A stretch of DNA of 64,000 nucleotides from Escherichia coli (GTDB taxonomy: Bacteria; Pseudomonadota; Gammaproteobacteria; Enterobacterales; Enterobacteriaceae): NCBI RefSeq assembly GCF_048403405.1, contig NZ_CP183136.1; one strand, given 5' to 3'. The first letter of the stretch is position 1; the number at the start of each line of letters is the position of its first letter. The notes under the pieces are model-generated. The model saw only the letters and a program-made list of their open reading frames with translations. It ran no database searches and was not told the DNA's origin. The position numbers were made by a program, and so were the translations under genes. Below are positions 8,233 to 33,199 of this stretch, piece after piece.

Positions 8233-8366
8233 CTGGCCCTGAAGTTGTATATCAGCCGGCAATGCCGGCGGGCTTTCTGTATTCAAAATCCGCCTGTAAA
8301 ACGAGTGCCCTGTGCGTGAAAAGGGATGGGCGGTAGCGTGTCAGAACATGTCGGGAGGAATATTCC

Positions 8367-8588: not shown

Positions 8589-8747
8589 GTCAGTCGCAGA
8601 ACATAGTGATTTAATTCCGGATGAACATGAGTGGATATTCAGAAAACAGAAATCTTTGTATATGCGCCGGGAAATGGCGCGTTAATTACAGGTATTCCCT
8701 TCATGGCTACCGCATTTCTCGCTTTATTTTTCAACTAAGGAATTCAT

Positions 8748-11375: not shown

Positions 11376-11758
11376 GTTCAACGCAGAAACCCGCCGACGT
11401 CATGGCAGAACGACGCAGCCACTGGTGGTGGACGGTGCCGGGATGCCTGGCAATGGTGTTACTGAACGCAGCCGTCAGTTACGGCATTGTCAGACTGAAC
11501 GCACCGGTGACTGTCGCCTTCAACATGAAACAGACCGTGGATGCGTTTTTTGACAGAGCCAGTCAGAAACAACTGTCAGAAGCGCAGTCAAAAGCCCTTT
11601 CAGCGCGTTTTAACACGGCACTGGAAGCCAGCCTGCAGGCGTGGCAGCAGAAACACCACGCGGTCATTCTGGTGTCGCCTGCTGTGGTACAGGGGGCACC
11701 GGATATCACCCGGGAAATCCAGCAGGATATTGCCCGGCGAATGAGGGCGGAACCATGA
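11372..11758 (+). CDS. trbI: TrbI
   Basis: 128-aa ORF overlapping the traC stop; conserved order. Confidence 0.85.
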   Translation: MSSTQKPADVMAERRSHWWWTVPGCLAMVLLNAAVSYGIVRLNAPVTVAFNMKQTVDAFFDRASQKQLSEAQSKALSARFNTALEASLQAWQQKHHAVILVSPAVVQGAPDITREIQQDIARRMRAEP

Positions 11759-12387
11759 GATGCCGGGGGCTGATTGCCCTGCTGATATGGGGGCAGAGTG
11801 TGGCCGCCGCCGATCTTGGTACCTGGGGCGATCTGTGGCCGGTAAAGGAGCCGGACATGCTGACGGTGATCATGCAGCGCCTGACGGCACTGGAGCAGTC
11901 CGGTGAGATGGGCCGGAAAATGGATGCCTTTAAGGAGCGGGTGATCCGCAACAGTCTGCGGCCCCCTGCCGTGCCCGGTATCGGACGCACGGAGAAATAC
12001 GGCAGCCGGTTGTTTGACCCGTCCGTCAGACTGGCTGCGGATATCCGGGATAACGAAGGGCGGGTGTTTGCCCGTCAGGGTGAAGTGATGAATCCGCTGC
12101 AGTATGTTCCTTTTAACCAGACGCTGTATTTCATCAATGGCGATGATCCGGCGCAGGTGGCCTGGATGAAACGCCAGACGCCGCCCACACTGGAGAGCAA
12201 AATTATCCTCGTGCAGGGCAGTATCCCGGAGATGCAGAAGTCTCTGGACAGCCGTGTTTACTTTGACCAGAACGGTGTGCTCTGCCAGCGCCTCGGCATT
12301 GATCAGGTCCCGGCACGGGTGAGCGCCGTTCCCGGCGATCGCTTCCTGAAGGTGGAATTTATTCCGGCAGAGGAGGGCAGAAAATGA
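11755..12387 (+). CDS. traW: TraW, pilus assembly protein
   Basis: ATG at 11755 within ORF 11641-12387 gives a signal peptide MRCRGLIALLIWGQSVAA. Confidence 0.85.
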   Translation: MRCRGLIALLIWGQSVAAADLGTWGDLWPVKEPDMLTVIMQRLTALEQSGEMGRKMDAFKERVIRNSLRPPAVPGIGRTEKYGSRLFDPSVRLAADIRDNEGRVFARQGEVMNPLQYVPFNQTLYFINGDDPAQVAWMKRQTPPTLESKIILVQGSIPEMQKSLDSRVYFDQNGVLCQRLGIDQVPARVSAVPGDRFLKVEFIPAEEGRK

Positions 12388-13376
12388 AGCGAAGGCTGTG
12401 GCTGCTGATGTTATTCCTTTTCGCCGGTCATGTCCCTGCGGCGTCTGCGGATTCTGCCTGTGAGGGGCGTTTTGTAAACCCGATCACAGATATCTGCTGG
12501 AGCTGTATTTTCCCGCTCTCGCTGGGCAGTATCAAAGTCAGTCAGGGGAAGGTCCCCGACACGGCGAACCCGTCGATGCCCATTCAGATTTGTCCGGCAC
12601 TGCCGCCGCTGTTCAGGCGTATCGGGCTGGCCATTGGTTACTGGGAGCCGATGGCGTTGACGGACGTCACCCGGTCACCGGGATGCATGGTGAACCTGGG
12701 CTTCAGCCTGCCGGCTTTTGGTAAAACGGCACAGGGAACGGCGAAAAAGGATGAGAAGCAGGTAAATGGGGCGTTCTATCACGTTCACTGGTACAAATAC
12801 CCGCTGACGTACTGGCTGAACATCATCACATCGCTGGGCTGTCTGGAAGGTGGTGACCTGGATATCGCTTATCTTTCTGAAATCGACCCCACCTGGACGG
12901 ACAGCAGCCTGACCACCATTCTCAATCCGGAAGCTGTCATCTTTGCCAATCCGATAGCACAGGGAGCCTGCGCAGCAGATGCGATTGCCAGCGCCTTTAA
13001 TATGCCTCTCGATGTTCTGTTCTGGTGTGCCGGTTCGCAGGGAAGTATGTACCCGTTCAATGGCTGGGTGAGTAATGAGTCCAGTCCGTTGCAGTCCTCC
13101 CTGCTGGTCAGTGAACGCATGGCGTTCAAGCTGCACCGTCAGGGCATGATTATGGAAACCATCGGGAAAAATAACGCCGTCTGTAATGAATATCCATCCC
13201 CAATCCTGCCCAAAGAACGCTGGCGTTACCAGATGGTGAATATGTACCCGGACAGCGGACAGTGCCACCCGTTCGGGCGCAGTGTGACCCGCTGGGAAAC
13301 CGGGAAAAATCCGCCCAATACAAAGAAAAACTTCGGCTACCTGATGTGGCGTAAACGTAACTGTGTCTTCCTGTGA
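12384..13376 (+). CDS. traU: TraU, pilus assembly / DNA transfer protein
   Basis: 330-aa ORF with signal peptide, conserved order. Confidence 0.9.
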   Translation: MKRRLWLLMLFLFAGHVPAASADSACEGRFVNPITDICWSCIFPLSLGSIKVSQGKVPDTANPSMPIQICPALPPLFRRIGLAIGYWEPMALTDVTRSPGCMVNLGFSLPAFGKTAQGTAKKDEKQVNGAFYHVHWYKYPLTYWLNIITSLGCLEGGDLDIAYLSEIDPTWTDSSLTTILNPEAVIFANPIAQGACAADAIASAFNMPLDVLFWCAGSQGSMYPFNGWVSNESSPLQSSLLVSERMAFKLHRQGMIMETIGKNNAVCNEYPSPILPKERWRYQMVNMYPDSGQCHPFGRSVTRWETGKNPPNTKKNFGYLMWRKRNCVFL

Positions 13377-13381
13377 GGTGA

Positions 13382-14023
13382 ATGATGAAGCTGAGTATGA
13401 AATCTCTGGCAGCACTGCTGATGATGCTGAACGGGGCGGTTATGGCGTCAGAAAACGTGAACACTCCTGAAAACCGCCAGTTCCTGAAGCAGCAGGAAAA
13501 TTTAAGCAGACAACTGCGTGAAAAACCTGACCATCAGCTGAAAGCCTGGGCGGAGAAGCAGGTGCTGGAAACCCCCCTTCAGCGTTCAGATAACCATTTC
13601 CTGGATGAGCTGGTTCGTAAACAGCAGGCTTCGCAGGACGGGAAACCCCGGCAGGGTGCCCTGTATTTTGTGTCGTTTTCCATTCCCGAAGAGGGGCTGA
13701 AACGAATGCTGGGCGAAACCCGGCACTACGGTATACCCGCCACACTGCGGGGCATGGTGAACAATGACCTGAAGACCACCGCTGAAGCCGTGCTGTCCCT
13801 GGTGAAAGACGGCGCGACTGATGGTGTTCAGATCGACCCGACGCTGTTTTCACAGTACGGCATTCGCAGTGTACCGGCACTGGTGGTGTTCTGCAGTCAG
13901 GGATACGACATCATCCGGGGAAACCTGCGGGTCGGCCAGGCGCTGGAGAAAGTGGCCGCCACGGGTGACTGCCGGCAGGTGGCTCATGATTTACTGGCAG
14001 GGAAAGGAGATTCCGGGAAATGA
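13382..14023 (+). CDS. trbC: TrbC, pilus assembly protein
   Basis: 213-aa ORF with signal peptide, conserved order. Confidence 0.85.
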   Translation: MMKLSMKSLAALLMMLNGAVMASENVNTPENRQFLKQQENLSRQLREKPDHQLKAWAEKQVLETPLQRSDNHFLDELVRKQQASQDGKPRQGALYFVSFSIPEEGLKRMLGETRHYGIPATLRGMVNNDLKTTAEAVLSLVKDGATDGVQIDPTLFSQYGIRSVPALVVFCSQGYDIIRGNLRVGQALEKVAATGDCRQVAHDLLAGKGDSGK

Positions 14024-15828
14024 AACGTATTTTACCTCTGATACTGGCTCTGGTTGCCGGCATGGCACAGGCTGACAGCAACAGTGATTACCGGGCCGGC
14101 TCTGATTTTGCTCACCAGATCAAAGGGCAGGGAAGCAGCAGTATTCAGGGCTTTAAGCCACAGGAGAGTATCCCCGGCTATAACGCGAATCCGGACGAGA
14201 CAAAATATTACGGTGGCGTGACTGCCGGCGGGGATGGCGGCCTGAAAAATGACGGCACCACGGAATGGGCGACCGGTGAAACCGGAAAAACCATCACAGA
14301 GTCATTCATGAACAAGCCGAAAGACATTCTTTCACCGGATGCACCGTTTATCCAGACCGGCAGGGATGTGGTGAACCGGGCTGACAGCATTGTGGGAAAC
14401 ACCGGGCAGCAGTGCAGTGCGCAGGAGATTAGCCGGAGTGAATACACGAATTACACCTGTGAGAGGGATTTACAGGTGGAGCAGTACTGCACACGAACTG
14501 CCCGTATGGAGCTGCAGGGGAGTACCACATGGGAAACCCGGACGCTGGAGTATGAAATGAGTCAGCTACCTGCACGTGAAGTGAATGGTCAGTATGTTGT
14601 CTCCATTACCTCTCCCGTTACCGGTGAAATTGTCGATGCGCATTACAGCTGGAGTCGTACTTACCTGCAGAAGAGTGTACCTATGACAATTACAGTACTG
14701 GGAACCCCACTGAGCTGGAATGCCAAATACTCAGCAGATGCCTCATTTACACCAGTACAGAAAACACTGACTGCCGGTGTTGCTTTTACGTCATCTCACC
14801 CCGTCCGGGTCGGGAATACAAAATTCAAACGTCATACGGCAATGAAGCTGCGTCTGGTTGTCAGGGTAAAAAAAGCCTCGTACACCCCGTATGTTGTCTG
14901 GTCTGAAAGCTGCCCGTTCAGCAAGGAGCTGGGGAAACTGACAAAAACAGAATGTACGGAGGCTGGCGGGAACAGGACGCTGGTGAAAGACGGTCAGTCA
15001 TACAGCATGTACCAGAGCTGCTGGGCATACCGGGACACGTATGTCACGCAGTCAGCAGACAAGGGAACCTGTCAGACCTACACCGACAATCCTGCCTGTA
15101 CCCTGGTGTCACACCAGTGTGCCTTTTACTCCGAAGAAGGTGCCTGTCTGCATGAATATGCCACGTACTCCTGTGAGTCAAAAACATCCGGGAAAGTGAT
15201 GGTCTGTGGGGGAGACGTCTTCTGTCTCGATGGCGAATGCGATAAGGCTCAGAGCGGGCAGAGTAATGATTTTGCCGAAGCCGTTTCTCAGCTGGCGGCA
15301 CTGGCCGCAGCAGGTAAGGATGTTGCGGCGCTGAACGGGGTGGATGTCCGTGCTTTCACCGGTCAGGCGAAATTTTGTAAGAAGGCTGCAGCCGGATACA
15401 GCAACTGCTGTAAGGACAGCGGCTGGGGACAGGATATCGGGCTGGCCAAATGCAGCAGTGATGAAAAGGCCCTGGCTAAAGCAAAATCAAACAAACTGAC
15501 CGTCAGCGTCGGGGAGTTCTGTTCGAAGAAAGTGCTGGGTGTCTGTCTGGAGAAAAAACGCAGCTACTGTCAGTTTGATTCGAAGCTGGCGCAGATAGTC
15601 CAGCAGCAGGGGCGCAACGGTCAGTTGCGTATCAGTTTTGGTAGTGCGAAGCATCCTGACTGTCGGGGGATTACGGTTGATGAGCTGCAGAAAATTCAGT
15701 TCAACAGACTGGATTTCACTAACTTCTACGAAGACCTGATGAATAACCAGAAAATCCCGGACAGTGGCGTTCTGACGCAGAAAGTGAAAGAGCAGATTGC
15801 TGACCAGCTGAAACAGGCAGGACAGTAA
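14020..15828 (+). CDS. traN: TraN, cysteine-rich outer-membrane mating-pair stabilisation protein
   Basis: 602-aa ORF with signal peptide and many Cys in the C-terminal half. Confidence 0.95.
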   Translation: MKRILPLILALVAGMAQADSNSDYRAGSDFAHQIKGQGSSSIQGFKPQESIPGYNANPDETKYYGGVTAGGDGGLKNDGTTEWATGETGKTITESFMNKPKDILSPDAPFIQTGRDVVNRADSIVGNTGQQCSAQEISRSEYTNYTCERDLQVEQYCTRTARMELQGSTTWETRTLEYEMSQLPAREVNGQYVVSITSPVTGEIVDAHYSWSRTYLQKSVPMTITVLGTPLSWNAKYSADASFTPVQKTLTAGVAFTSSHPVRVGNTKFKRHTAMKLRLVVRVKKASYTPYVVWSESCPFSKELGKLTKTECTEAGGNRTLVKDGQSYSMYQSCWAYRDTYVTQSADKGTCQTYTDNPACTLVSHQCAFYSEEGACLHEYATYSCESKTSGKVMVCGGDVFCLDGECDKAQSGQSNDFAEAVSQLAALAAAGKDVAALNGVDVRAFTGQAKFCKKAAAGYSNCCKDSGWGQDIGLAKCSSDEKALAKAKSNKLTVSVGEFCSKKVLGVCLEKKRSYCQFDSKLAQIVQQQGRNGQLRISFGSAKHPDCRGITVDELQKIQFNRLDFTNFYEDLMNNQKIPDSGVLTQKVKEQIADQLKQAGQ

Positions 15829-15851
15829 GGTATGGGAAATAACCGGGGGAA

Positions 15852-16112
15852 ATGATGAAAGTCATATTCACGTCGAACCGTTTTATTGATTTTCTTATCC
15901 GGCTTTTGATTACAGCGATTGTCATTTCTCTGGTAATTATCTGGTCGTGGGATACGGTAAAAGAAACCACGGCAGACGGGATGCTTGCCGCTGCTTTCGT
16001 TATCCTTTACTCCGGTGTGCTCCTGTTTATTCTGTATTTTTGTTTTTCTGCCCTGACTGACCTGCAGAAACCTGATGAAAGAAAAAGTGATGAAAGGAAT
16101 GAAGATGAATAA
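15852..16112 (+). CDS. trbE: TrbE
   Basis: 86-aa small membrane protein in conserved position. Confidence 0.8.
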   Translation: MMKVIFTSNRFIDFLIRLLITAIVISLVIIWSWDTVKETTADGMLAAAFVILYSGVLLFILYFCFSALTDLQKPDERKSDERNEDE

Positions 16113-16848
16113 AGCATTACTGCCACTGTTACTCTGCTGCTTTATTTTTCCGGCGTCAGGAAAAGATGCAGGCTGGCAGTGGTATAACGAGAAAATAAAT
16201 CCGAAGGAAAAAGAAAATAAACCTGTACCTGCAGCCCCCCGTCAGGAACCGGATATTATGCAGAAACTGGCCGCACTGCAGACGGCAACAAAGCGGGCGC
16301 TGTACGAAGCCATTCTGTATCCCGGCGTGGATAATTTTGTGAAATATTTCCGGCTGCAAAATTACTGGACTCAGCAGGCCGGGCTTTTCACCATGAGCGC
16401 CAGAAAGGCCATGCTGGCACATCCTGAACTGGACTATAACCTGCAGTACAGCCATTACAACGGCACGGTACGGAACCAGCTGGCAGCAGACCAGGCGCAG
16501 CAGCGACAGGCCATTGCGAAACTGGCTGAACACTACGGCATCATGTTTTTTTACCGGGGGCAGGACCCCATCGACGGGCAGCTGGCGCAGGTCATTAATG
16601 GCTTCCGGGATACCTATGGTCTGAGTGTTATTCCCGTTTCCGTGGATGGCGTGATTAATCCGCTGTTGCCGGATTCCCGGACTGACCAGGGGCAGGCGCA
16701 GCGCCTCGGCGTGAAATATTTCCCGGCCATGATGCTGGTTGACCCGAAACAGGGTAGTGTTCGTCCGTTATCATACGGTTTTATTTCGCAGGACGACCTG
16801 GCAAAACAGTTCCTGAATGTCTCTGAGGATTTTAAACCGAATTTTTAA
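16105..16848 (+). CDS. traF: TraF, thioredoxin-fold pilus assembly protein
   Basis: ATG at 16105 within ORF 16075-16848 gives a 247-aa protein with signal peptide MNKALLPLLLCCF. Confidence 0.9.
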   Translation: MNKALLPLLLCCFIFPASGKDAGWQWYNEKINPKEKENKPVPAAPRQEPDIMQKLAALQTATKRALYEAILYPGVDNFVKYFRLQNYWTQQAGLFTMSARKAMLAHPELDYNLQYSHYNGTVRNQLAADQAQQRQAIAKLAEHYGIMFFYRGQDPIDGQLAQVINGFRDTYGLSVIPVSVDGVINPLLPDSRTDQGQAQRLGVKYFPAMMLVDPKQGSVRPLSYGFISQDDLAKQFLNVSEDFKPNF

Positions 16849-16861
16849 CCAAAGGATATAT

Positions 16862-17203
16862 ATGCATACAGGGGATTTGTGTTTTTTTACAGGTGCCAGC
16901 CTGTTTATCGTGGGGGTTGTTGGTTATTTCTTTACAGGACTAAATAATAAAGGAGTTTATCTACTGAGCTCGTTTGTCTTCTTTGTAGTAAATGTCATAA
17001 GTGTATGTATGCTGCCAGATAATTTCTTGTTTCTTTGTGGTGCGGTTATGAATCAGTGTGCCGTACCGGTTGTTTCAATGGCAGTCAGCACCATGCCGAT
17101 TATCACGAAGTTTGACAGTTTCAGAAGGATGTTTATTTGTATTATGTTGTCAGCCATATGGTCTGGAGTGATGTGGTTTTTTATTATTTCATTAGTGAAA
17201 TGA
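16862..17203 (+). CDS. trbA: TrbA, small membrane protein
   Basis: ATG at 16862 (MHTGDLCFF...) within ORF 16817-17203; hydrophobic. Confidence 0.75.
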   Translation: MHTGDLCFFTGASLFIVGVVGYFFTGLNNKGVYLLSSFVFFVVNVISVCMLPDNFLFLCGAVMNQCAVPVVSMAVSTMPIITKFDSFRRMFICIMLSAIWSGVMWFFIISLVK

Positions 17204-17519
17204 CTGGTGCTAATTTGTCATAAATGCCAAATCCAATAGTGAGGTTGATTACCACAGACCAGAGGATAAACCAGACTGCTATCCAGTGACTTCTGAATAA
17301 ATCACAAAAATAAACATAGATGATTAGAAATAGCCATATCACAACAGCGATAATTGCTATAAATAACAGTATCGTCACAAATAAATCAGCAAAGGTTTTA
17401 ATGGGGAGAGTGTGCAATAATGAATACACCAGTAAAGCAAAAGCCGCATTACCTGATAATGACTCTCTTATGATGTTTCTCACTATTTCCAGTTTTTCTT
17501 TAAAAGATCGCTTTTCCAT
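17184..17519 (-). CDS. artA: ArtA-like antisense ORF
   Basis: 111-aa hydrophobic ORF on the opposite strand between trbA and traQ, as in F; expression not inferable. Confidence 0.45.
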   Translation of the reverse strand: MEKRSFKEKLEIVRNIIRESLSGNAAFALLVYSLLHTLPIKTFADLFVTILLFIAIIAVVIWLFLIIYVYFCDLFRSHWIAVWFILWSVVINLTIGFGIYDKLAPVISLMK

Positions 17520-17599
17520 TTGTACCTCTGACTAATATCACACAAACGCGAATATTACAGACATGAATACTCTCATGTAAATAATAACCGGAGTTTAAC

Positions 17600-17884
17600 A
17601 TGATAAGTAAACGCAGATTCTCTTTACCCCGGCTTGATATTACGGGAATGTGGGTATTTTCCCTGGGCGTCTGGTTTCATATCGTCGCCCGTCTTGTTCA
17701 CAGCAAACCCTGGATGGCTTTTTTTCTGGCGGAGCTGATTGCGGCCATCCTTGTGCTGTTCGGCGCATACCAGGTGCTGGATGCATGGATTGCCCGTGTC
17801 AGCCGGGAAGAGCGTGAGGCACTGGAAGCCAGGCAACAGGCCATGATGGCAGAGCAGCAGGAGGGCGGACATGTCTCTCACTAA
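17600..17884 (+). CDS. traQ: TraQ, pilin chaperone
   Basis: 94-aa membrane protein in conserved position. Confidence 0.9.
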   Translation: MISKRRFSLPRLDITGMWVFSLGVWFHIVARLVHSKPWMAFFLAELIAAILVLFGAYQVLDAWIARVSREEREALEARQQAMMAEQQEGGHVSH

Positions 17885-18425
17885 ATTACTGCCGGTTATT
17901 CTGTTGATGATGGCCACAGGTGTGCAGGCCTCCACCCGGGATGAAATTGAACGACTCTGGCATCCGCAGGGTATGGCTGCGCAGCCTGCACAACCGGCAG
18001 CAGACACGCCAGCCAGGACAGACAAGACAGAAAAGCCGGCTCCCCGCTGGTTCCGCCTCAGCAACGGCAGGCAGGTTAACCTGGCCGACTGGAAGGTGGT
18101 GCTGTTTATGCAGGGGCATTGCCCTTACTGTCACCAGTTTGACCCGGTACTGAAGCAGCTGGCACAGCAGTACGGCTTTTCCGTTTTTCCCTACACTCTG
18201 GATGGTCAGGGGGATATGGCCTTTCCGGAAGCATTACCGGTGCCACCGGACGTGATGCAGACCTTCTTCCCGAATATCCCGGTGGCCACACCGACCACCT
18301 TCCTGGTCAACGTCAACACGCTTGAGGCATTACCGCTTTTACAGGGGGCAACGGATGCCGCCGGTTTTATGGCGCGGATGGATACCGTTCTGCAGATGTA
18401 CGGAGGGAAAAAAGGTGCGAAATAA
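17871..18425 (+). CDS. trbB: TrbB, periplasmic thioredoxin-like disulfide isomerase
   Basis: Signal peptide and CPYC active-site motif. Confidence 0.9.
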   Translation: MSLTKLLPVILLMMATGVQASTRDEIERLWHPQGMAAQPAQPAADTPARTDKTEKPAPRWFRLSNGRQVNLADWKVVLFMQGHCPYCHQFDPVLKQLAQQYGFSVFPYTLDGQGDMAFPEALPVPPDVMQTFFPNIPVATPTTFLVNVNTLEALPLLQGATDAAGFMARMDTVLQMYGGKKGAK

Positions 18426-18729
18426 GCAGGTGGTGTTACTCATTGCCGGAATATCCGGCATCGCGACGGGAATAATCGTCAGCCTGAATATTCCCTTTAT
18501 CCGTCAGGGGCTTTTTTATCCCGCCAGTCCTGTAGAAATAGTCGTTTCGCTGTGTCTTACCTTTTCTGTTTCTGTTGTGTTTTTTGTGGGGGCAATTGTG
18601 GGATGGATTTCGGTGTCTGAAATATATTACAGCCGCATGACCGGTCTGAATGAATCATCAGTAATATCAGAGGAAACTTATAATGACAAAAAACAAAAAG
18701 AATCAGGAATTCAAAATCAGAAAAATTAG
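18415..18729 (+). CDS. trbJ: TrbJ
   Basis: GTG at 18415 within ORF 18322-18729 gives MRNKQVVLLIAG..., a small membrane protein. Confidence 0.7.
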   Translation: MRNKQVVLLIAGISGIATGIIVSLNIPFIRQGLFYPASPVEIVVSLCLTFSVSVVFFVGAIVGWISVSEIYYSRMTGLNESSVISEETYNDKKQKESGIQNQKN

Positions 18730-19075
18730 ACGGAATATTGAGTATAGTTTCAGAGGTTCTGACAGATATTTTTATTTGTTTATTGTTTTCCTTGTTGCCG
18801 GAATTGTTTTATGGGCTGTTATGCACGTTATTTTCGATGTCTGTATTGATTCGTGGATGGCCGACCCGAAATTACTTAATTTCCAGTATATGTGGAATGT
18901 TCTGATGAAAGTCATTCCGTTTACGTTATGGGCGCTGGCAGCAAGGTTTCTTGTTACATTTTTTCTGTCCCCAATGTGCGAATTAATATTCGGAAATATC
19001 ATGATATTCCTGCTGAAACGCCGTATGCGCCGGGAGAACACATTAAGGGAGGGCAAGAATGATGCCACGCATTAA
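18683..19075 (+). CDS. trbF: TrbF
   Basis: 130-aa membrane protein in conserved position. Confidence 0.8.
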   Translation: MTKNKKNQEFKIRKIRRNIEYSFRGSDRYFYLFIVFLVAGIVLWAVMHVIFDVCIDSWMADPKLLNFQYMWNVLMKVIPFTLWALAARFLVTFFLSPMCELIFGNIMIFLLKRRMRRENTLREGKNDATH

Positions 19076-20448
19076 ACCTCTTCTGGTTCTTTGTGCTGCT
19101 TTACTGACGGTCACACCCGCAGCGTCAGCGGATGTGAACAGCGACATGAATCAGTTCTTTAACAAGCTGGGCTTCGCCTCCAATACCACCCAGCCGGGCG
19201 TCTGGCAGGGGCAGGCCGCCGGCTATGCTTACGGTGGCTCCCTGTATGCCCGTACTCAGGTTAAAAATGTTCATCTGATTTCCATGACGCTGCCGGATAT
19301 CAATGCCGGATGTGGCGGCATCGACGCCTATCTCGGCTCGTTCAGCTTTATTAATAGCGAGCAGTTGCAGCGTTTTGTTAAGCAGATTATGAGCAATGCT
19401 GCCGGTTACTTCTTTGACCTTGCCCTGCAGACAACGGTGCCGGAAATCAAAACCGCAAAAGACTTCCTGCAGAAAATGGCAAGCGACATTAACAGTATGA
19501 ACCTCAGTTCCTGCCAGGCGGCACAGGGGATTATCGGCGGGCTTTTCCCCCGGACGCAGGTGTCCCAGCAGAAAGTCTGTCAGGACATTGCCGGTGAGAG
19601 CAATATTTTTGCTGACTGGGCTGCTTCCCGGCAGGGATGTACCGTTGGCGGGAAATCTCGACAGCGTCAGGGATAAAGCCAGCGACAAGGATAAGGAGCG
19701 GGTGACCGAAAAACATCAACATCATGTGGAATGCGCTTTCCAAAAACAGAATGTTTGACGGCAACAAAGAGCTGAAAGAGTTTGTGATGACGCTGACCGG
19801 CTCACTGGTGTTTGGTCCCAGACGGCGAAATCACACCGCTATCGGCGCAGAACCACTGACCGCTCATATTATCCGGGCCATGATGGAAGGCGGTACAGCA
19901 AAAATTTATCACTGCAACGATTCTGACAAATGCCTGAAAGTGGTGGCAGACACACCGGTGACCATCAGCCCGGGATAATGCACTGAAGTCTCAGATTACT
20001 AAACTTCTGGCCAGCATTCAGAACAAGGCTGTCAGTGACACGCCTCTGGATGACAAGGAAAAAGGCTTTATTTCCAGTACCACCATCCCCGTCTTCAAAT
20101 ACCTGGTTGACCCGCAGATGCTCGGTGTTTCCAACAGTATGATTTACCAGCTGACGGACTATATCGGTTACGACATCCTGCTGCAGTACATTCAGGAGCT
20201 GATACAGCAGGCCCGGGCGATGGTGGCCACCGGGAAATTATCGACGAAGCAGTTATCGAACAGTATTAACTGGACAATATGAATGATGCCACCGCGGCAG
20301 ATTGCGGCGTTTCCAGTCACAGGTACAGGTGCAGCAGGATGCGCTGCTGGTCGTCGACCGTCAGATGAGCTACATGCGTCAGCAGCTTTCCGCCCGCATG
20401 CTCAGTCGTTACCAGAACAACTATCACTTCGGAGGGAGCACGCTGTGA
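19059..20448 (+). pseudogene. traH: traH (pilus assembly), frame-disrupted
   Basis: ORF 19059-19676 matches the TraH N-terminal part with signal peptide; later TraH-like segments are in other frames (for example ORF 19724-19978); stop at 20446-20448. Confidence 0.75.
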
Positions 20449-23217
20449 ATGAAGTTTATGTGATTGCCGGTGGTGAATGGTTGCGGAATAACCTGAACGC
20501 CATTGCCGCCTTTATGGGAACCAGGACGTGGGATTCCATTGAAAAAATTGCTCTCACCCTGTCTGTTGTTGCGGTGGCCTTTATGTGGGTACAGCGGCAC
20601 AACGTGATGGATTTGCTGGGCTGGGCGGCGGTGTTTGTGCTTATCAGCCTGCTGGTTAATATCCGTACGTCGGTGCAGATTATTGATAACAGTGACCTGG
20701 TCAAAGTCCATCGGGTGGATAATGTGCCGGTCGGACTGGCGATGCCACTTTCACTGACGACCCGTATCGGGCATGCAATGGTGGCCAGTTACGAGATGAT
20801 CTACACGCAACCGGACAGTTTCACCTACAGCAAAACGGGGATGCTGTTTGGCGCAGAACCTGGTATGCAAAAAGCACCGACTTTTTGTCCCGCAATCCGG
20901 AAATCGCCAATCTTTTTCAGGATTATGTGCAGAACTGTGTGATGGGGGATATTTACCTGAACCACAAATACACGCTGGAGGAGCTGATGGCCTCCGCTGA
21001 TCCCTACACGCTGATTTTTTCCCGCCCCAGTCCGCTGCGGGGCGTTTATGACAGCAATAATAATTTCGTGACCTGTAAGGACGCGTCGGTTTCGCTGAAA
21101 GACAAGCTGAATCTGGACACACAGACGTGGCGGCAAAACCTGGCATTATTATGTGCAGCAGATATTTGGCGGTCAGCCCGGATCCGGACCTGTTATTCAG
21201 TGCAACTGGTTGAGTGACAGTTACCGTTATTTCTACGGCTCCAGCCAGTCTGCCAGTCAGATCATGCGCCAGAACGTCACCATGAATGCGCTGAAGGAGG
21301 GTATCACCAGTTATGCAGCCCGTAACGGTGACTACCGCCAGCCTGGTGAATCTGGCCACCACGTCATCGATGGAGAAGCAACGTCTGGCACATGTCTCCA
21401 TTGGTCATGTGGCTGATGCGAAACACTGCCGATGGCGCAGACCATTCTGGTGGGCATTACCATCGGTATTTTCCCGCTCCTGGTACTGGCGGCTGTCTTC
21501 AACAAACTGACGCTGTCTGTTCTGAGAGGCTATGTGTTTGCCCTGATGTGGTTGCAGTCATGGCCAATGTTGTATGCCATTCTGAACAGCGCCATGACAT
21601 TTTATGCGAAGCAGAATGGTGCACCGGTGGTGCTCTCGGAAATTTCACAGATACAGCTGAAATACTCCGATCTGGCTTCCACTGCCGGGTATCTTTCCAT
21701 GATGATACCCGCCATTATCCTGGATGATGGTCAGAGGCCTTGGCGCCGGTTTTTCCAGCGTGTACAGCCATTTCGCTTCCTCTGCTATCAGCCCGACTGC
21801 CAGTGCGGCAGGCAGTGTGGTTGACGGTAATTACTCCTACGGCAACATGCAGACGGAAAACGTGAACGGCTTCAGCTGGAGCACCAACAGCACCACGTCG
21901 TTTGGTCAGATGATGTACCAGACCGGCAGTGGCGCAACTGCCACACAGACCCGTGACGGTAATATGGTGATGGATGCAAGCGGAGCGATGTCCCGTTTAC
22001 CGGTTGGTATCAATGCAACGCGTCAGATTGCAGCGGCACAACAGGAAATGGCCCGGGAGGCGTCGAACAGAGCAGAAAGCGCCCTGCATGGTTTCAGCAG
22101 CAGTATTGCCAGTGCCTGGAACACGCTCAGTCAGTTTGGTTCTAACCGGGGGAGCAGTGATTCTGTCACCGGTGGCGCTGACAGCACCATGAGTGCACAG
22201 GACTCCATGATGGCCAGCCGTATGCGCAGTGCAGTGGAAAGCTATGCGAAGGCGCATAATATCAGTAATGAGCAGGCGACTCAGGAACTGGCATCAACAG
22301 GTTCTAGGTTCTCGTCTGGCGGAATGTATGCAGATGCTCATGCTGAATGGGGGATTAAACCTGAAATTCTTGGTGTTGGTGGTGGGGTTGGTGTCAGAGG
22401 CGGGTTTAAGGGAAGTCTTGGATGCGAACGGATGATGACTCACATTCTGCAAGTAGTGGCAGCAGAGCTACCCATGATGCTCGCCATGATATTGACGCTA
22501 AAGCCAGTACAGGACTTTAAAGAAGCCAGCGATTACTTTACCAGTCGCAAGGTCAGTGAGTCCGGCAGCCATACTGACAATAATGCTGACTCCCGGGTGG
22601 ACCAGTTGTCTGCAGCCCTGAACTCAGCGAAACAGAGTTACGACCAATACACGACGAATATGACCCGCAGCCATGAATATGCGGAAATGGCCTCCCGTAC
22701 TGAAAGCATGAGCGGGCAGATGAGTGAAGACCTGTCGCAACAGTTTGCACAGTATGTGATGAAACGCGCACCGCAGGATGCAGAAGCTATTCTGACAAAT
22801 ACCAGTTCGCCGGAGATTGCAGAACGTCGTCGGGCGATGGCATGGTCTTTTGTGCAGGAACAGGTACAGCCTGGTGTTGATAATGCCTGGCGGGAATCCC
22901 GTGGCGATATTGGTAAAGGAATGGAGAGCGTACCTTCGGGTGGTGGCAGTCAGGATATTATTGCTGACCATCAGGGACATCAGGCCATTATTGAGCAAAG
23001 AACGCAGAACAGTAATATCCGTAATGATGTAAAACATCAGGTTGATAATATGGTCACAGAATATCGTGGCAATATCGGAGATACTCAGAACAGTATCCGT
23101 GGCGAGGAAAATATTGTAAGACGGGCAGTATTCTGAACTGCAAAATCATCATAAAACAGGAGGCATTATCTACAGAATAATAAATATAATGAAGAGCAAG
23201 AAACGTCAGAAGATTAA
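20445..23217 (+). pseudogene. traG: traG (mating-pair stabilisation / entry exclusion), frame-disrupted in several places
   Basis: GTG at 20445 (MNEVYVIAGG...); TraG-like translation is split over ORFs 20283-20942, 20885-21217, 21153-21416, 21432-21824 and 21724-23136; 3' end approximate. Confidence 0.75.
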
Positions 23218-23290
23218 TACCTGACGCCATCAGAAGAGGCTGTGAAAACAGATGGTGGATGATAAGAAGGATACGACTGAAGGGGCCATT

Positions 23291-23699
23291 ATGATCACTC
23301 ACTATGATATAAAAACGGAGACACAGAAACTAAAGGATGTACTCTCTGTAGAGGGAGTTAATATTCCGCCATTATTACAAGTCATAAAGCCAGGGAACTG
23401 TATGTGTTTTTATGGGTTTTATTATGGCCAACTTTTCTGCGTTTAGCTATCAGTTAAAAGTTGATGTCCGGGATGCTGGCTTTGATATATGTGCTAGTGG
23501 CATGATGGGGTTCCTCCTTTTTGTGGCCATTACAAATGGAATGATGTTATACCTTGCGATTCCTGATAGTTTCAGAAATGAGTCGAAAATAATAACTTTT
23601 ATGTATGATAAGAACAAAACTTATATCTTGTCGTTTGTGATTGTTTTTTCTATGGTTTCCTTTGCTGCATACGTATCTTATTTGGGTTTTTGCATCTAA
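23291..23699 (+). pseudogene. traS: traS (entry exclusion), frame-disrupted
   Basis: ATG at 23291 (MITHYDIK...); hydrophobic translation is split between ORFs 23252-23446 and 23412-23699. Confidence 0.55.
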
Positions 23700-23824
23700 T
23701 GATTACTATTCGTAATTATTTCTCTTGGTGTATACCATAGATATAAATCGTTATAATCTCTCTGCAATAGTCTCAGTAATAGGTCTGTTCAAAAAAGAGT
23801 CTGTTAGTTAAAAGGATATTCTGG

Positions 23825-24556
23825 ATGAAAACAAAAAAATTGATGATGGTTGCACTGGTCAGTTCCACTCTGGCCCTTTCAGGGTGTGGTGCGATGAGCA
23901 CAGCAATCAAGAAGCGTAACCTTGAGGTGAAGACTCAGATGAGTGAGACCATCTGGCTTAAACCCGCCAGCGAACGCACGGTATTTCTGCAGATCAAAAA
24001 CACGTCTGATAAAGACATGAGTGGGCTGCAGGGCAAAATTGCTGATGCTGTGAAAGCAAAAGGATATCAGGTGGTGACTTCTCCGGATGCAGCCTACTAC
24101 TGGATTCAGGCGAATGTGCTGAAGGCCGATAAGATGGATCTGCGGGAGTCTCAGGGATGGCTGAACCGTGGTTATGAAGGCGCAGCTGTTGGTGCAGCGT
24201 TAGGTGCCGGTATTACCGGCTATAACTCAAATTCTGCCGGTGCCACACTCGGTGTAGGCCTTGCTGCTGGTCTGGTGGGTATGGCTGCAGATGCGATGGT
24301 GGAAGATGTGAACTATACCATGATCACGGATGTGCAGATTGCAGAGCGTACTAAGGCAACGGTGACAACGGATAATGTTGCCGCCCTGCGTCAGGGCACA
24401 TCAGGTGCGAAAATTCAGACCAGTACTGAAACAGGTAACCAGCATAAATACCAGACCCGTGTGGTCTCAAATGCGAACAAGGTTAACCTGAAATTTGAAG
24501 AGGCGAAGCCTGTTCTCGAAGACCAGCTGGCCAAATCAATCGCAAATATTCTCTGA
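23825..24556 (+). CDS. traT: TraT, surface-exclusion outer-membrane lipoprotein
   Basis: 243-aa ORF with lipobox LALSGCGAM; matches TraT. Confidence 0.95.
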
Positions 24557-24820: not shown

Positions 24821-27155
24821 ATGAGTTTTAACGCAAAGGATATGACCCAGGGCGGTCAGATTGCGTCCATGCGTATCCGCATGTTCAGCCAGATCGCCAA
24901 TATCATGCTTTACTGCCTGTTTATTTTTTTCTGGATACTCGTTGGTCTGGTTTTATGGGTAAAAATAAGCTGGCAGACGTTTGTGAACGGCTGTATTTAC
25001 TGGTGGTGTACCACGCTGGAAGGCATGCGGGATTTAATCAAGTCCCAGCCGGTATATGAGATCCAGTATTACGGCAAAACCTTCCGGATGAACGCTGCTC
25101 AGGTACTGCATGATAAATATATGATTTGGTGCGGAGAGCAGCTATGGTCCGCATTCGTTCTGGCCACAGTTGTGGCACTGGTTATTTGCCTGATTACCTT
25201 CTTTGTTGTCTCCTGGATTCTGGGGCGTCAGGGTAAACAACAGAGCGAAAATGAAGTCACAGGTGGTCGTCAGCTGACAGACAATCCGAAAGACGTTGCC
25301 CGGATGCTGAAAAAAGACGGCAAGGACTCCGATATCCGGATTGGCGACCTGCCGATTATCCGGGATTCCGAAATCCAGAACTTCTGTCTGCACGGCACGG
25401 TCGGGGCCGGTAAGTCGGAGGTTATCCGTCGTCTGGCCAACTACGCCCGTCAGCGCGGTGATATGGTGGTGATTTATGACCGTTCAGGGGAATTTGTTAA
25501 AAGTTACTATGATCCCTCCATCGATAAAATCCTGAATCCGCTGGATGCCCGCTGTGCCGCATGGGATTTGTGGAAGGAGTGCCTGACACAGCCGGATTTT
25601 GATAATACCGCAAATACTCTGATCCCGATGGGTACAAAAGAGGACCCGTTCTGGCAGGGTTCAGGACGTACCATTTTTGCGGAAGCGGCGTACCTGATGC
25701 GTAATGACCCCAACCGCAGCTACAGCAAACTGGTGGACACACTGCTTTCCATCAAAATCGAAAAACTGCGTACCTTCCTGCGTAATTCACCGGCGGCCAA
25801 CCTGGTGGAAGAGAAAATCGAGAAAACGGCGATTTCCATCCGTGCTGTGCTGACCAACTACGTGAAAGCCATCCGTTACCTGCAGGGGATTGAGCATAAC
25901 GGTGAGCCCTTCACCATCCGTGACTGGATGCGTGGTGTCCGGGAAGATCAGAAAAACGGCTGGCTGTTTATCTCATCGAACGCCGACACCCATGCCTCCC
26001 TGAAGCCGGTGATCTCCATGTGGCTGTCCATTGCCATTCGTGGTCTGCTGGCAATGGGAGAAAACCGTAAACGTCGTGTGTGGTTTTTCTGTGACGAGTT
26101 ACCCACGTTACACAAACTGCCGGATCTGGTGGAGATCCTGCCGGAAGCCCGTAAGTTCGGTGGCTGTTATGTGTTTGGTATCCAGTCCTATGCCCAGCTG
26201 GAAGATATCTACGGTGAGAAAGCGGCGGCCACGCTGTTTGACGTCATGAACACCCGTGCTTTTTTCCGTTCTCCCGAGCCATAAGATTGCAGAGTTCGCT
26301 GCCGGTGAGATTGGTGAGAAAGAGCACCTGAAAGCCAGCGAGCAGTATTCCTACGGTGCTGATCCGGTACGTGACGGGGTATCGACCGGTAAGGATATGG
26401 AGCGTCAGACGCTGGTCAGTTATTCCGACATTCAGTCTCTGCCGGATCTGACCTGCTATGTCACTCTGCCCGGACCGTATCCGGCAGTAAAACTCTCTCT
26501 GAAATATCAGGCACGACCGAAGGTCGCTCCGGAGTTTATTCCGCGTGACATCAACCCGGAAATGGAGAACCGTCTGAGTGCCGTACTTGCCGCAAGGGAA
26601 GCAGAAGGTCGTCAGATGGCCAGCCTCTTCGAACCGGAGGTTGCCTCCGGAGAAGATGTGACTCAGGCTGAACAGCCACAACAGCCACAACAGCCACAAC
26701 AGCCACAACAGCCACAACAGTCACAACAGCCACAACAGCCACAACAGCCACAACAGCCACAACAGCCACAACAGCCACAACAGCCACAACAGCCACAACA
26801 GCCACAACAGCCACAACAGCCACAACAGCCACAACAGCCACAACAGCCACAACAGCCACAACAGCCACAACAGCCAGTGTCTCCTGCCATCAACGATAAG
26901 AAGTCAGATGCAGGTGTGAGTGTTCCGGCAGGGGGGATCGAGCAGGAGCTGAAAATGAAACCGGAAGAAGAGATGGAACAGCAACTGCCACCCGGGATCA
27001 GTGAATCCGGTGAAGTGGTGGATATGGCCGCTTATGAGGCATGGCAACAGGAAAATCATCCGGACACCCAGCAGCAGATGCAGCGTCGTGAAGAGGTGAA
27101 CATTAATGTGCACCGGGAGCGCGGGGAGGATGTTGAGCCGGGAGATGATTTCTGA
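24821..27155 (+). pseudogene. traD: traD (coupling protein), frameshifted near 26275 as sequenced
   Basis: ORF 24821-26284 has Walker A GTVGAGKS and ends [11 protein letters not shown]; the TraD C-terminal region with the QQP repeat continues in another frame (ORF 26256-27155). Confidence 0.85.
26673..26870 (+). repeat. Tandem 9-bp repeat (CAGCCACAA, about 22 units) encoding the TraD QQP tract
   Basis: Repeat units read directly; one variant unit CAGTCACAA. Confidence 0.9.
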
Positions 27156-30100
27156 TGTTGAGTTTCAGCGTTGGTTAAATCGGCAGGCAGTGCCGGAAAC
27201 TATTACACCGACAAGGATAATTACTATGTGCTGGGCAGCATGGGAGAACGCTGGGCTGGTCAGGGGGGCTGAACAGCTTGGGACTGCAGGGCAGCGTCGA
27301 TAAGGATGTTTTTACCCGTCTTCTGGAGGGCAGGCTGCCGGACGGAGCGGATTTAAGCCGCATGCAGGATGGCAGTAATAAGCATCGTCCCGGCTACGAC
27401 CTGACCTTCTCCGCCCCCAAAAGTGTCTCCATGATGGCCATGCTCGGGGGCGATAAACGCCTGATTGATGCACATAACCAGGCCGTGGATTTTGCTGTCC
27501 GTCAGGTGGAGGCGCTGGCTTCCACACGGGTGATGACGGACGGACAGTCAGAAACGGTGCTGACCGGTAATCTGGTGATGGCACTGTTTAACCATGACAC
27601 CAGTCGCGATCAGGACCCACAGTTACACACGCATGTAGTGGTGGCTAATGTCACGCAGCATAACGGCGAGTGGAAGACACTGAGCAGTGACAAAGTGGGG
27701 AAAACCGGATTTATCCGAGAACGTGCTACGCGAACCGGATTGCGTTCGGGAAGATCTATCAGAGTGAGTTACTGTCAGCGCAGGTTGAGGCGCTGGGTTA
27801 TGAAACCGAAGTGGTCGGTAAGCACGGTATGTGGGAGATGCCGGGCGTACCGGTGGAGGCCTTTTCCAGTCGTTCACAGGCTATCAGGGAGGCCGTCGGT
27901 GAAGACGCCTCGCTGAAATCCCGGGATGTGGCGGCACTGGATACGCGAAAATCCAAACAGCACGTCGATCCGGAAATCAGAATGGCTGAATGGATGCAGA
28001 CGCTGAAGGAAACCGGGTTCGACATCCGGGCATATCGTGACGCGGCGGATCAGCGTGCGGAGACCCGCACGCAGGCGCCCGGGGCTGTTTCACAGGAGGG
28101 GCCGGATGTGCAGCAGGCGGTGACACAGGCCATTGCCGGATTAAGTGAACGAAAAGTGCAGTTTACGTACACGGACGTGCTGGCCAGAACGGTCGGTATA
28201 CTGCCGCCGGAAAATGGTGTGATTGAACGGGCACGCGCCGGTATCGATGAGGCCATCAGTCGTGAGCAGCTTATCCCCCTCGACCGTGAGAAGGGGCTGT
28301 TCACATCAGGAATTCATGTGCTCGATGAGCTGTCCGTCCGGGCACTCAGTCGTGACATCATGAAACAGAACCGGGTGACCGTACATCCGGAGAAAAGTGT
28401 CCCCCGGACGGCTGGTTACAGCGATGCGGTCAGTGTTCTGGCACAGGACCGTCCGTCGCTGGCCATTGTGTCCGGGCAGGGCGGTGCAGCCGGGCAGCGT
28501 GAGCGGGTGGCTGAACTGGTCATGATGGCCCGGGAGCAGGGGCGGGAGGTGCAGATTATCGCTGCTGACCGTCGCTCGCAGATGAACCTGAAGCAGGATG
28601 AACGGCTGTCCGGTGAGCTGATAACCGGACGTCGTCAGCTGCAGGAGGGCATGGTCTTCACGCCGGGCAGTACTGTTATCGTCGACCAGGGCGAAAAACT
28701 CTCCCTGAAAGAGACGTTAACCCTGCTGGACGGTGCCGCACGTCATAACGTACAGGTCCTGATAACCGACAGCGGGCAGCGAACCGGTACAGGCAGTGCG
28801 CTGATGGCCATGAAGGATGCCGGGGTGAACACGTATCGCTGGCAGGGCGGAGAACAGCGACCGGCAACCATCATCAGTGAACCGGACCGGAATGTCCGCT
28901 ATGACCGGCTGGCCGGAGATTTTGCGGCCAGCGTGAAAGCCGGAGAAGAGAGCGTGGCACAGGTCAGCGGGGTACGGGAACAGGCCATACTGACACAGGC
29001 CATTCGCAGTGAGCTGAAAACACAGGGCGTGCTCGGACACCCGGAGGTGACCATGACCGCCCTGTCACCGGTCTGGCTGGACAGCCGGAGCCGTTATCTG
29101 CGGGATATGTACCGACCGGGGATGGTGATGGAGCAGTGGAACCCGGAGACACGCAGTCATGACCGCTATGTTATCGACCGGGTGACGGCGCAGAGTCACA
29201 GCCTGACCCTGCGGGATGCGCAGGGCGAAACGCAGGTGGTGCGTATTTCCTCCCTGGACAGCAGCTGGTCGCTGTTCCGGCCGGAAAAAATGCCGGTGGC
29301 AGACGGCGAGCGACTGAGGGTGACAGGGAAAATTCCCGGACTCCGCGTCTCCGGCGGTGACCGCCTGCAGGTGGCATCCGTCAGTGAAGATGCGATGACG
29401 GTTGTTGTGCCGGGGCGGGCTGAACCGGCCACCCTGCCTGTGGCTGATTCACCGTTCACGGCACTGAAGCTGGAGAACGGCTGGGTGGAAACGCCCGGGC
29501 ATTCCGTCAGTGACAGTGCGACGGTGTTTGCCTCCGTCACACAGATGGCAATGGACAACGCCACCCTGAACGGTCTGGCCCGCAGCGGTCGTGATGTCCG
29601 GCTGTATTCCTCACTGGATGAAACCCGTACTGCGGAAAAACTTGCCCGCCATCCCTCCTTTACGGTGGTTTCTGAGCAGATAAAGGCGCGGGCCGGTGAG
29701 ACATCGCTGGAAACCGCTATCAGTCTGCAGAAAACCGGGCTGCACACGCCGGCACAGCAGGCCATTCATCTGGCCCTTCCTGTGCTGGAAAGTAAAAACC
29801 TGGCCTTCAGCATGGTGGACCTGCTGACAGAGGCGAAGTCGTTTGCTGCAGAAGGAACCGGTTTTACTGAACTGGGAGGGGAAATCAATGCGCAGATAAA
29901 ACGCGGTGACTTACTGTATGTGGATGTGGCAAAAGGCTATGGCACAGGCCTGCTGGTTTCTCGTGCGTCGTATGAGGCAGAAAAAAGTATTCTTCGCCAT
30001 ATTCTCGAAGGTAAGGAGGCGGTCACGCCGCTGATGGAGAGAGTACCCGGCGAACTCATGGAGACGTTAACGTCGGGACAGCGTGCCGCCACCCGTATGA

Positions 30101-32433
30101 TACTGGAAACGTCCGACCGTTTCACGGTGGTACAGGGTTATGCCGGTGTGGGTAAGACCACACAGTTCCGGGCGGTGATGTCAGCCGTGAACATGCTGCC
30201 GGCGAGTGAGCGTCCCCGAGTTGTGGGGCTGGGGCCCACGCACCGTGCGGTCGGTGAGATGCGCAGCGCCGGCGTGGATGCACAGACGCTGGCGTCCTTT
30301 CTGCATGACACGCAGCTGCAGCAGCGCAGCGGAGAAACGCCGGATTTCAGCAACACGCTGTTCCTGCTCGATGAGAGCTCAATGGTGGGCAATACCGACA
30401 TGGCACGGGCATACGCCCTGATTGCGGCCGGTGGCGGTCGTGCCGTGGCCAGTGGTGACACGGACCAGCTGCAGGCCATCGCGCCCGGTCAGCCTTTCCG
30501 TCTCCAGCAGACGCGCAGTGCTGCCGATGTGGTCATCATGAAGGAGATTGTGCGTCAGACGCCGGAACTGCGGGAGGCGGTATACAGCCTGATTAACCGG
30601 GATGTGGAAAAGGCACTGTCCGGGCTTGAGAGTGTGAAACCGTCTCAGGTGCCACGTCTGGAGGGCGCATGGGCACCGGAGCACTCCGTGACGGAGTTCA
30701 GTCACAGCCAGGAAGCGAAACTGGCAGAAGCGCAGCAGAAGGCGATGCTGAAAGGTGAGACTTTTCCGGATGTCCCCATGACACTGTATGAAGCCATTGT
30801 CCGCGACTATACCGGCAGGACACCGGAAGCACGGGAGCAGACGCTGATTGTCACGCACCTGAATGAGGACCGGCGCGTACTGAACAGCATGATTCATGAT
30901 GCACGGGAAAAGGCCGGTGAGCTGGGGCAGGAGCAGGTCATGGTGCCTGTCCTGAACACAGCGAATATACGTGACGGGGAGCTGCGTCGTCTCTCCACCT
31001 GGGAGAATAACCCGGATGCCCTTGCCCTGGTGGATAGTGTGTATCACCGGATTGCCGGTATCAGCAAGGATGACGGGCTGATAACCCTGGAGGATGCGGA
31101 AGGTAACACGCGGCTGATTTCGCCCCGGGAGGCGGTGGCTGAAGGTGTCACACTGTACACCCCGGACAAAATCCGGGTGGGGACCGGCGACCGGATGCGC
31201 TTCACGAAGAGTGACCGGGAGCGCGGTTATGTGGCCAACAGCGTCTGGACGGTGACAGCGGTTTCCGGTGACAGTGTCACGCTGTCAGACGGACAGCAGA
31301 CCCGGGTGATTCGCCCCGGCCAGGAGCGGGCAGAGCAACATATTGACCTGGCTTATGCCATCACCGCCCACGGTGCGCAGGGGGCGAGTGAAACCTTTGC
31401 CATCGCGCTTGAAGGCACGGAAGGTAACCGGAAACTGATGGCCGGCTTTGAGTCAGCCTACGTGGCCCTGTCGCGTATGAAGCAGCATGTGCAGGTGTAC
31501 ACCGATAACCGTCAGGGCTGGACGGATGCCATTAACAATGCCGTACAGAAAGGAACTGCCCACGATGTGCTGGAGCCGAAACCGGACCGGGAGGTCATGA
31601 ATGCGCAGCGGCTGTTCAGTACGGCACGGGAACTGCGGGACGTGGCGGCAGGCCGTGCCGTTCTCCGTCAGGCAGGGCTGGCCGGGGGAGACAGCCCTGC
31701 ACGGTTTATTGCACCGGGACGTAAATATCCGCAGCCGTATGTGGCACTGCCGGCGTTTGACCGTAACGGCAAGTCAGCTGGTATCTGGCTGAACCCACTG
31801 ACCACGGATGACGGAAACGGGCTGCGGGGATTCAGTGGTGAAGGACGGGTGAAAGGCAGCGGGGATGCGCAGTTCGTGGCCCTGCAGGGCAGCCGTAACG
31901 GAGAGAGCCTGCTGGCTGATAATATGCAGGATGGCGTCCGGATTGCCCGTGATAATCCTGACAGCGGTGTGGTGGTGAGAATTGCCGGTGAAGGTCGTCC
32001 GTGGAATCCCGGTGCCATCACCGGTGGCCGCGTGTGGGGGGATATCCCGGATAACAGCGTCCAGCCGGGGGCCGGAAATGGCGAACCGGTCACGGCAGAG
32101 GTACTGGCACAGCGGCAGGCTGAAGAGGCCATCCGCCGTGAAACGGAACGCCGCGCAGATGAAATTGTCAGGAAAATGGCAGAGAACAAACCTGACTTGC
32201 CGGACGGCAAAACAGAGCTGGCTGTCAGGGATATTGCCGGGCAGGAACGTGACCGGACTGCCACTTCTGAACGGGAAACCGCACTGCCGGAGAGTGTGCT
32301 GCGTGAATCACAACGGGAGCGGGAAGCGGTCCGGGAGGTTGCCCGGGAAAATCTGCTGCAGGAGCGTCTGCAGCAGATGGAGCGGGATATGGTTCGTGAC
32401 CTGCAGAAAGAGAAAACCCTGGGCGGAGACTGA
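27155..32433 (+). pseudogene. traI: traI (relaxase-helicase), N-terminal roughly 650 nt frame-disrupted; remainder intact
   Basis: ATG at 27155 overlaps the traD stop but hits TAA after 7 codons; relaxase-domain residues are spread over three frames (ORFs 27106-27303, 27278-27916); ORF 27811-32433 (1540 aa) has helicase motif GYAGVGKT. Confidence 0.85.
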
Positions 32434-32452
32434 TACAGGAAGACAAACACTG

Positions 32453-33199
32453 ATGACAACGGATAACACGAACACGACACGTAACGATTCACTGGCTGCA
32501 CGGACCGATACCTGGTTGCAGTCGTTTCTGGTCTGGTCACCCGGACAGCGGGATATCATCAAAACGGTGGCGCTGGTGCTGATGGTACTGGACCACATCA
32601 ATCTGATATTCCAGCTGAAGCAGGAATGGATGTTTCTGGCCGGGCGAGGAGCCTTTCCGCTGTTTGCCCTGGTGTGGGGGCTGAATCTGTCCCGTCATGC
32701 GCATATCCGGCAACCGGCCATTAACCGGCTGTGGGGATGGGGAATTATTGCCCAGTTCGCATATTATCTGGCCGGCTTTCCCTGGCATGAGGGGAATATC
32801 CTGTTTGCCTTTGCAGTGGCGGCACAGGTGCTGACGTGGTGTGAAACGCGCAGTGGGTGGCGTACAGCAGCGGCCATTCTTCTGATGGCCCTGTGGGGGC
32901 CTTTGTCCGGCACCAGTTACGGCATTGCCGGGCTGCTGATGCTGGCGGTCAGTTACCGACTGTACCGGGCGGAAGACAGAGCGGAACGTCTGGCGCTGCT
33001 TGCATGCCTGCTGGCCGTTATTCCGGCACTTAACCTTGCCTCCAGTGATGCAGCGGCGGTGGCCGGTCTTGTAATGACGGTGCTGACCGTTGGTCTGGTG
33101 TCGTGTGCAGGAAAATCATTACCCCGTTTCTGGCCCGGGGATTTTTTCCCGGTATTCTACGCCTGTCATCTGGCTGTGCTGGGCGTTCTGGCGTTGTGA
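32453..33199 (+). CDS. traX: TraX, F-pilin acetyltransferase
   Basis: ATG at 32453 gives a 248-aa polytopic membrane protein; conserved position after traI. Confidence 0.9.
   Translation: MTTDNTNTTRNDSLAARTDTWLQSFLVWSPGQRDIIKTVALVLMVLDHINLIFQLKQEWMFLAGRGAFPLFALVWGLNLSRHAHIRQPAINRLWGWGIIAQFAYYLAGFPWHEGNILFAFAVAAQVLTWCETRSGWRTAAAILLMALWGPLSGTSYGIAGLLMLAVSYRLYRAEDRAERLALLACLLAVIPALNLASSDAAAVAGLVMTVLTVGLVSCAGKSLPRFWPGDFFPVFYACHLAVLGVLAL

Follow-up and report, generated by a model that had tools for sequence, protein, structure and literature searches.

The 64,000-nucleotide stretch of Escherichia coli DNA analysed here (contig NZ_CP183136.1, hereafter the window) carries an F-type conjugative transfer operon in which three consecutive genes, traH, traG and traS, are each split into several open reading frames (ORFs). 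Our results indicate that this breakage is very probably an artefact of a collapsed or chimeric consensus built from two alleles, and that no decayed genes are involved. We refer to these alleles as A, which is pMB5823_1-like (NZ_CP103646), and B, which is p143-3-like (NZ_CP091565) and also resembles pJKHS004_3.

The genes concerned belong to an ordinary F-type (MPF_F) transfer operon, of which this locus forms the distal part. The order trbF-traH-traG-traS-traT-traD, with its start/stop overlaps, corresponds one-to-one to that of the annotated plasmids pMB5823_1, pAVS0787-A and p143-3, and the genes from trbF to traT lie in the window as follows.

18683-19075, plus strand: trbF, intact, 130 aa, allele A; 206 bits with the NCBIfam model NF010306 against a cut-off of 144
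19062-20448, plus strand: traH (pilus assembly), with 13 extra bases and zero substitutions relative to allele A
20445-23294, plus strand: traG (pilus assembly, mating-pair stabilisation, entry-exclusion partner), with 24 extra bases
23291-23811, plus strand: traS (entry exclusion), with 11 extra bases and finely interleaved A and B calls
23825-24556, plus strand: traT, intact, 243 aa, mainly allele-B bases; 541.7 bits with the NCBIfam model NF010291 against a cut-off of 445

An earlier reading made from the sequence alone had described traH, traG and traS as fragmented between clean trbF and traT genes, and this description is borne out on both counts. In the ORF listing of 17.5-25.5 kb, TraH-like pieces are found at 19059-19676 (205 aa), 19724-19978 (84 aa) and 20118-20282 (54 aa), TraG-like pieces at 20283-20942, 20885-21217, 21432-21824 and 21724-23136, and TraS-like pieces at 23252-23446 and 23412-23699; the longest ORF between trbF and traT is the last TraG-like piece, with 470 aa. 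All nine pieces tested matched the TraH, TraG or TraS equivalog models of NCBIfam in successive parts of the profile, and all nine scored below the curated cut-off. The pieces covered positions 1-201, 222-302 and 352-398 of the TraH profile (NF010279), positions 1-137, 147-235, 330-427 and 429-900 of the TraG profile (NF010295), and positions 48-129 of the TraS profile (NF010304). As the sequence stands, the best fragments thus reach 430 against a cut-off of 625 for TraH, 473 against 600 for TraG and 101.5 against 173 for TraS. In thousands of F-like plasmids the intact homologues are single ORFs of 1374 nt (traH), 2826 nt (traG) and 510 nt (traS). The disrupted stretch does not end at 23699, as had been proposed, since traS itself ends at 23811; its ORF stops short of that position because the last insertions (23695, 23707 and 23714) shift the frame. 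With regard to function, F-like TraG is membrane-anchored with a periplasmic C-terminal domain, and the title of the paper cited here calls it a conjugative entry exclusion protein (PMC9797247).

Global alignments of the window with pAVS0787-A and pMB5823_1 served as the basis of the indel tally. They revealed 48 insertions in the window (19659 to 23714) and 0 deletions relative to the intact references, all of them within traH, traG and traS and none in trbF or traT. In traH, the extra bases lie at 19659, 19708, 19821, 19847, 19867, 19969, 20230, 20242, 20263, 20271-2, 20294 and 20313. None of the 48 insertions extends a homopolymer of 3 or more, none lies in a run of 4 or more, and the extra bases are absent from all homologues compared. 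A 46-mer covering four of the insertions had no identical match among genome, metagenome and viral contigs, and two of the fragment proteins likewise yielded none when looked up exactly. Homopolymer slippage and phase variation were therefore rejected as the source of these 48 frame-changing bases. Programmed ribosomal frameshifting was likewise rejected, as 48 frame changes are far from few and the homologues have none of them.

The most obvious biological explanation is that traH, traG and traS are true pseudogenes, lost by accumulated frameshifts, which would leave a non-conjugative plasmid with defective entry exclusion. Frameshifts do exist in the sequence as given, decay of tra genes is generally known in F-like plasmids, and the presence of several broken transfer genes beside intact ones is what is seen when tra operons genuinely decay in non-conjugative IncF plasmids. 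However, genuine decay proceeds through insertion sequence (IS) insertions, deletions and private point mutations, and the traH-traG-traS stretch shows none of these marks beyond 2 private substitutions relative to three references (L001, L002 and L003); PLSDB does hold examples with IS elements inside traG. As many as 48 indels arising by genuine decay should have brought many more such substitutions. Moreover, a ratio of insertions to deletions of 48:0 opposes the usual bacterial deletion bias, the insertions avoid homopolymers, and the 16 kb directly upstream match a known conjugative plasmid base for base. Above all, the inserted bases copy those of a second allele at polymorphic sites, as detailed below, and we know of no mutational process that would copy the base of a second allele as an insertion. 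Taken together, true pseudogenes appear very unlikely.

The origin of the inserted bases was examined by comparing the window with both alleles. In a three-way alignment, traH matches allele A exactly except for its 13 insertions, and each of these is the B base of a neighbouring A/B-variant site. At 19708, for example, the C of allele A and the G of allele B stand together as CG in the window, and at 19867 an A in allele A and a T in allele B appear as AT. We refer to such side-by-side bases as doublets. The whole stretch from trbF to traT (5,874 bp) was then threaded through the A/B alignment by dynamic programming, each column being free to contribute the base of either allele or the two together. 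The resulting path contained 33 doublets and 0 deletions, with 3 insertions left unexplained and 2 positions mismatched. Thus, 33 of the 36 extra bases that were scored (92%) are A/B doublets, the other 12 of the 48 coinciding with columns of the alignment in which one of the two alleles is gapped. In a null model of 24 simulations, each with 36 random insertions placed in the cleaned sequence, the mean was 2.8 doublets of 36 (about 8%) and the maximum was 5. A comparison of alignment positions across references, in which zero insertion positions were shared, was superseded by the threading; its outcome is a placement effect, the insertions adjoining variant sites.

This result also bears on random sequencing error, such as might occur in a low-coverage stretch of insertion-prone long reads in the absence of any second allele. 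The errors are indeed clustered regionally, and an insertion-only, non-homopolymer pattern resembles the raw errors of early single-molecule reads. Random insertions, however, match the other allele far less often in simulation than the extra bases of the window do, and the substitutions in the zone are those of allele A or allele B, with the same 2 mismatches, instead of being random. We therefore regard random error as extremely unlikely.

The substitutions tell the same story as the insertions, since 700 of the 702 substitution-type calls in the threading match A or B. The window is pure A up to 19707 and remains A with occasional doublets to about 21130; a fine mix of the two alleles follows from 21130 to 21740, then mainly B from about 21740 to 23150, and a fine mix again across traS. 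A natural counterpart of this mosaic was sought in PLSDB (72,556 plasmids) after removal of the insertions, and the best matches reached 91.3% identity for the traS region and 93.6% for the traG part at 21050-21750; for the raw segment 20900-23800 the best PLSDB identity was 94.4%. A rare natural allele behind the mosaic was rejected on the basis of these three values. The differences thus lie at A/B-variant sites and carry the base of the other allele, and the mosaic is missing from the sampled plasmids, whereas the 16,018-bp flank matches a natural plasmid exactly. The flank and the two mosaic stretches are located as follows.

547-3592, no strand assigned: upstream mixing zone (oriT-proximal traM/traJ/traY), an A/B mosaic with the same doublet signature
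3641-19658, plus strand: pure allele-A block from upstream of traL to mid-traH, an exact substring of pMB5823_1 (NZ_CP103646) of 16,018 bp
19659-23723, no strand assigned: mixing zone in which, compared with allele A, 48 bases are inserted and 0 deleted, and in which the call changes between A and B 126 times along 700 informative sites

The sequence-only reading had called the traH-traG-traS disruptions a second cluster, and the zone at 547-3592 is probably the first. Of the 27 extra bases in that zone, 21 are A/B doublets, whereas the null averaged 2.75 and never exceeded 5. When the whole window was mapped to its best reference in bins of 500 bp, bins 4001-19500, between the two zones, showed zero differences from pMB5823_1; the disruptions begin abruptly at 19659, within traH. 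Alleles A and B differ at at least 709 sites across 3641-19658, and no B signal was found there. Past about 28 kb, the backbone resembles pJKHS004_3, a 69-kb plasmid with a microcin B17 operon. Overall, a pure-A block (3.6-19.7 kb) lies inside a B-type backbone, and at either junction a few kb of sequence are mixed; such a picture would be expected of a chimeric or collapsed contig in which two homologous tra regions were joined. The lack of any allele-B trace in the block suggests a chimeric contig layout in which an A block was joined to a B backbone.

A mosaic on both sides of a clean A block might also be produced by natural recombination between A and B, since the ends of a conversion tract can be heteroduplex, and the repair of such ends would have left a mosaic with real extra bases. 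The mosaic is nevertheless without counterpart among the PLSDB plasmids, and to our knowledge no repair pathway keeps the bases of both strands in tandem. A related possibility is that the contig was never assembled from reads but is a consensus made in silico or otherwise generated; identical doublets would result if gaps were ignored when an A/B alignment was reduced to a consensus, but this variant would still be an artefact and not biology. We give very little credence to this pair of explanations. A step further, the doublets could be real products of recombination between co-resident tra regions, in which an undescribed form of heteroduplex processing keeps the bases of both strands and inactivates traH, traG and traS in one event. 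We regard this reading as extremely unlikely.

The two-allele artefact is further supported by the restoration of the reading frames. The 'clean' sequence derived from the threading path kept frameshifts because the gap columns absorbed 12 extra bases at no cost, and the extra bases were therefore removed relative to allele A. Deletion of the 48 bases gave a TraH of 457 aa with 100% identity to the allele-A protein (914.6 bits, the cut-off being 625), a TraG of 941 aa with one residual stop (1285.5 bits against 600) and a TraS of 169 aa (247.5 bits against 173), and the corrected matches span the full lengths of the profiles. The residual stop in TraG probably reflects the deletion of the wrong base of a doublet. 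The local loss of mating-pair stabilisation and entry exclusion that had been implied is thus unsupported, given that the changes are insertions only, that they carry allele-B bases, that private substitutions number 2 and that the ORFs can be restored.

The clean appearance of the flanking genes finds a simple explanation in the same terms. The trbF gene is clean because it is located upstream of the point where mixing starts, and traT owes its intact frame to the near identity of the two alleles in this gene. Indeed, 13 A/B differences fall in the bins covering 23933-24556 (most of traT), against 20-60 per 250 bp in neighbouring genes; at a doublet rate of about 6% per polymorphic site, fewer than 1 would be expected for traT. 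Therefore, the contrast between clean flanks and broken genes carries no biological information, and traT was not selectively spared.

How such a consensus may have arisen can be proposed as follows. Its input would have been reads, or sequences in an alignment, that represent two diverged tra alleles, A and B; these may stem from two co-resident F-like plasmids, from a cointegrate with two tra copies or from a mixed sample; PLSDB holds records of one plasmid with two tra copies. Consensus builders working on noisy alignments often write a mismatch as a neighbouring insertion and deletion. In the transition zones, a single-base A/B difference would thus be aligned as an insertion plus a deletion, and the consensus would keep both bases next to each other. 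If each allele were well represented among the reads, neither base would fall below the support threshold and both would be written, so that each doublet would gain one base and shift the frame. At the remaining sites of the mixing zone, the caller would have chosen A or B individually, which would result in the fine mosaic. We infer that the technology was a long-read partial-order or overlap consensus.

A comparable situation has been reported for Trypanosoma brucei Tb427, where a collapsed PacBio assembly of close allelic variants led to misaligned reads, indel errors and truncated ORFs, which were corrected by phasing (PMC8445201). As in that assembly, two diverged alleles appear to have been merged into one mosaic with apparent frameshifts. 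In contrast to Tb427, the alleles here would be two F-like plasmid tra regions and not homologous chromosomes, the mixture is limited to two zones, each a few kb long, on either side of the pure-A block, and the error takes the form of a side-by-side doublet of the bases of both alleles, known here from the assembled sequence alone. Compared with pMB5823_1 and p143-3, the window has the same gene order from trbF to traD, but it differs from them in its 48 extra bases and in an A/B mosaic carried by no sampled plasmid.

The sequence-only reading had also presented the disruption as localised to traH, traG and traS. These genes are indeed broken, but the frame changes are not confined to them, as traD and the 5' end of traI are also shifted. 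The traD gene spans 24821-27155 in the window and is interrupted by a single base.

26276, plus strand: extra G in traD (CTCCC[G]AGCC), which splits the gene into ORFs of 487 aa and 299 aa, as seen in the alignment and in the tblastn frames

In traI, the TraI match shifts frame at about 27260 and about 27712 (5' end, about 27160-27800), and A/B doublets are found there too. Overall, A/B threading downstream of traT gave 4 doublets against 61 unexplained extra bases, most of which come from a longer traD repeat tract. The mixing zone may extend on to about 27.8 kb, with a doublet signature that is weak past traT. The 3' end of traI, where a break had been suspected, is unbroken: traI ends at its natural stop at 32433, and the 405-aa ORF that overlaps it (31982-33199) is an upstream extension of traX.

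The repeat tract itself lies in the C-terminal part of traD, where the CAACAGCCA (Gln-Gln-Pro) repeats at about 26670-26880 are longer than in all three aligned references. This could reflect either natural variation in repeat number or a long-read error in repeat length.

Several observations weigh against the two-allele artefact. The insertions at 19659, 20268 and 22316 were left unexplained by the threading with the references used as allele B, p143-3 being an approximation of the true allele B. The G at about 26276 in traD is likewise unexplained, as allele A and the references L005 and L006 share one sequence at this position. The absence of B from the 16-kb block demands that the mixture be limited to the transition zones of the contig, which is plausible for a chimeric layout. 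Finally, the A/B mixture is deduced from the assembled sequence and was not observed in reads.

Other features of the window lie further downstream. A complete microcin B17 operon (mcb) is found on the minus strand at about 41200-46100. It comprises the TOMM precursor, McbB, a SagB-type dehydrogenase, a YcaO protein, immunity/ABC genes and the pentapeptide-repeat protein McbG, and it differs from the 69-kb plasmid NZ_CP147071 by at most 1 substitution per 500-bp bin. Next to it, about 1 kb (46075-47131) is missing from the pJKHS004_3 alignment; this segment holds a 322-aa ORF (46107-47075) and could be an insertion element. At 52000-64000, the leading-region genes, among them ssb, psiB and a ParB-like gene, differ from two references by many substitutions, and indel clusters occur in the bins starting at 53001, 56501, 59001 and 62501; this may reflect either natural divergence or further mixing of alleles.

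To conclude, our results call for caution with this record. The structure at about 0.5-3.6 kb and about 19.7-28 kb is untrustworthy without the reads, and the join between the A block and the B backbone possibly is too. The reasoning may be reused to tell such artefacts from pseudogenes elsewhere, by asking whether the changes are insertions only, whether the inserted base is that of the other allele at a polymorphic site, and whether private mutations are absent. Taken at face value, the sequence would lead to the plasmid being scored as non-conjugative and without entry exclusion, with several pseudogenes annotated, and both calls would very probably be wrong. The underlying plasmid or plasmids presumably carry intact traH, traG and traS.

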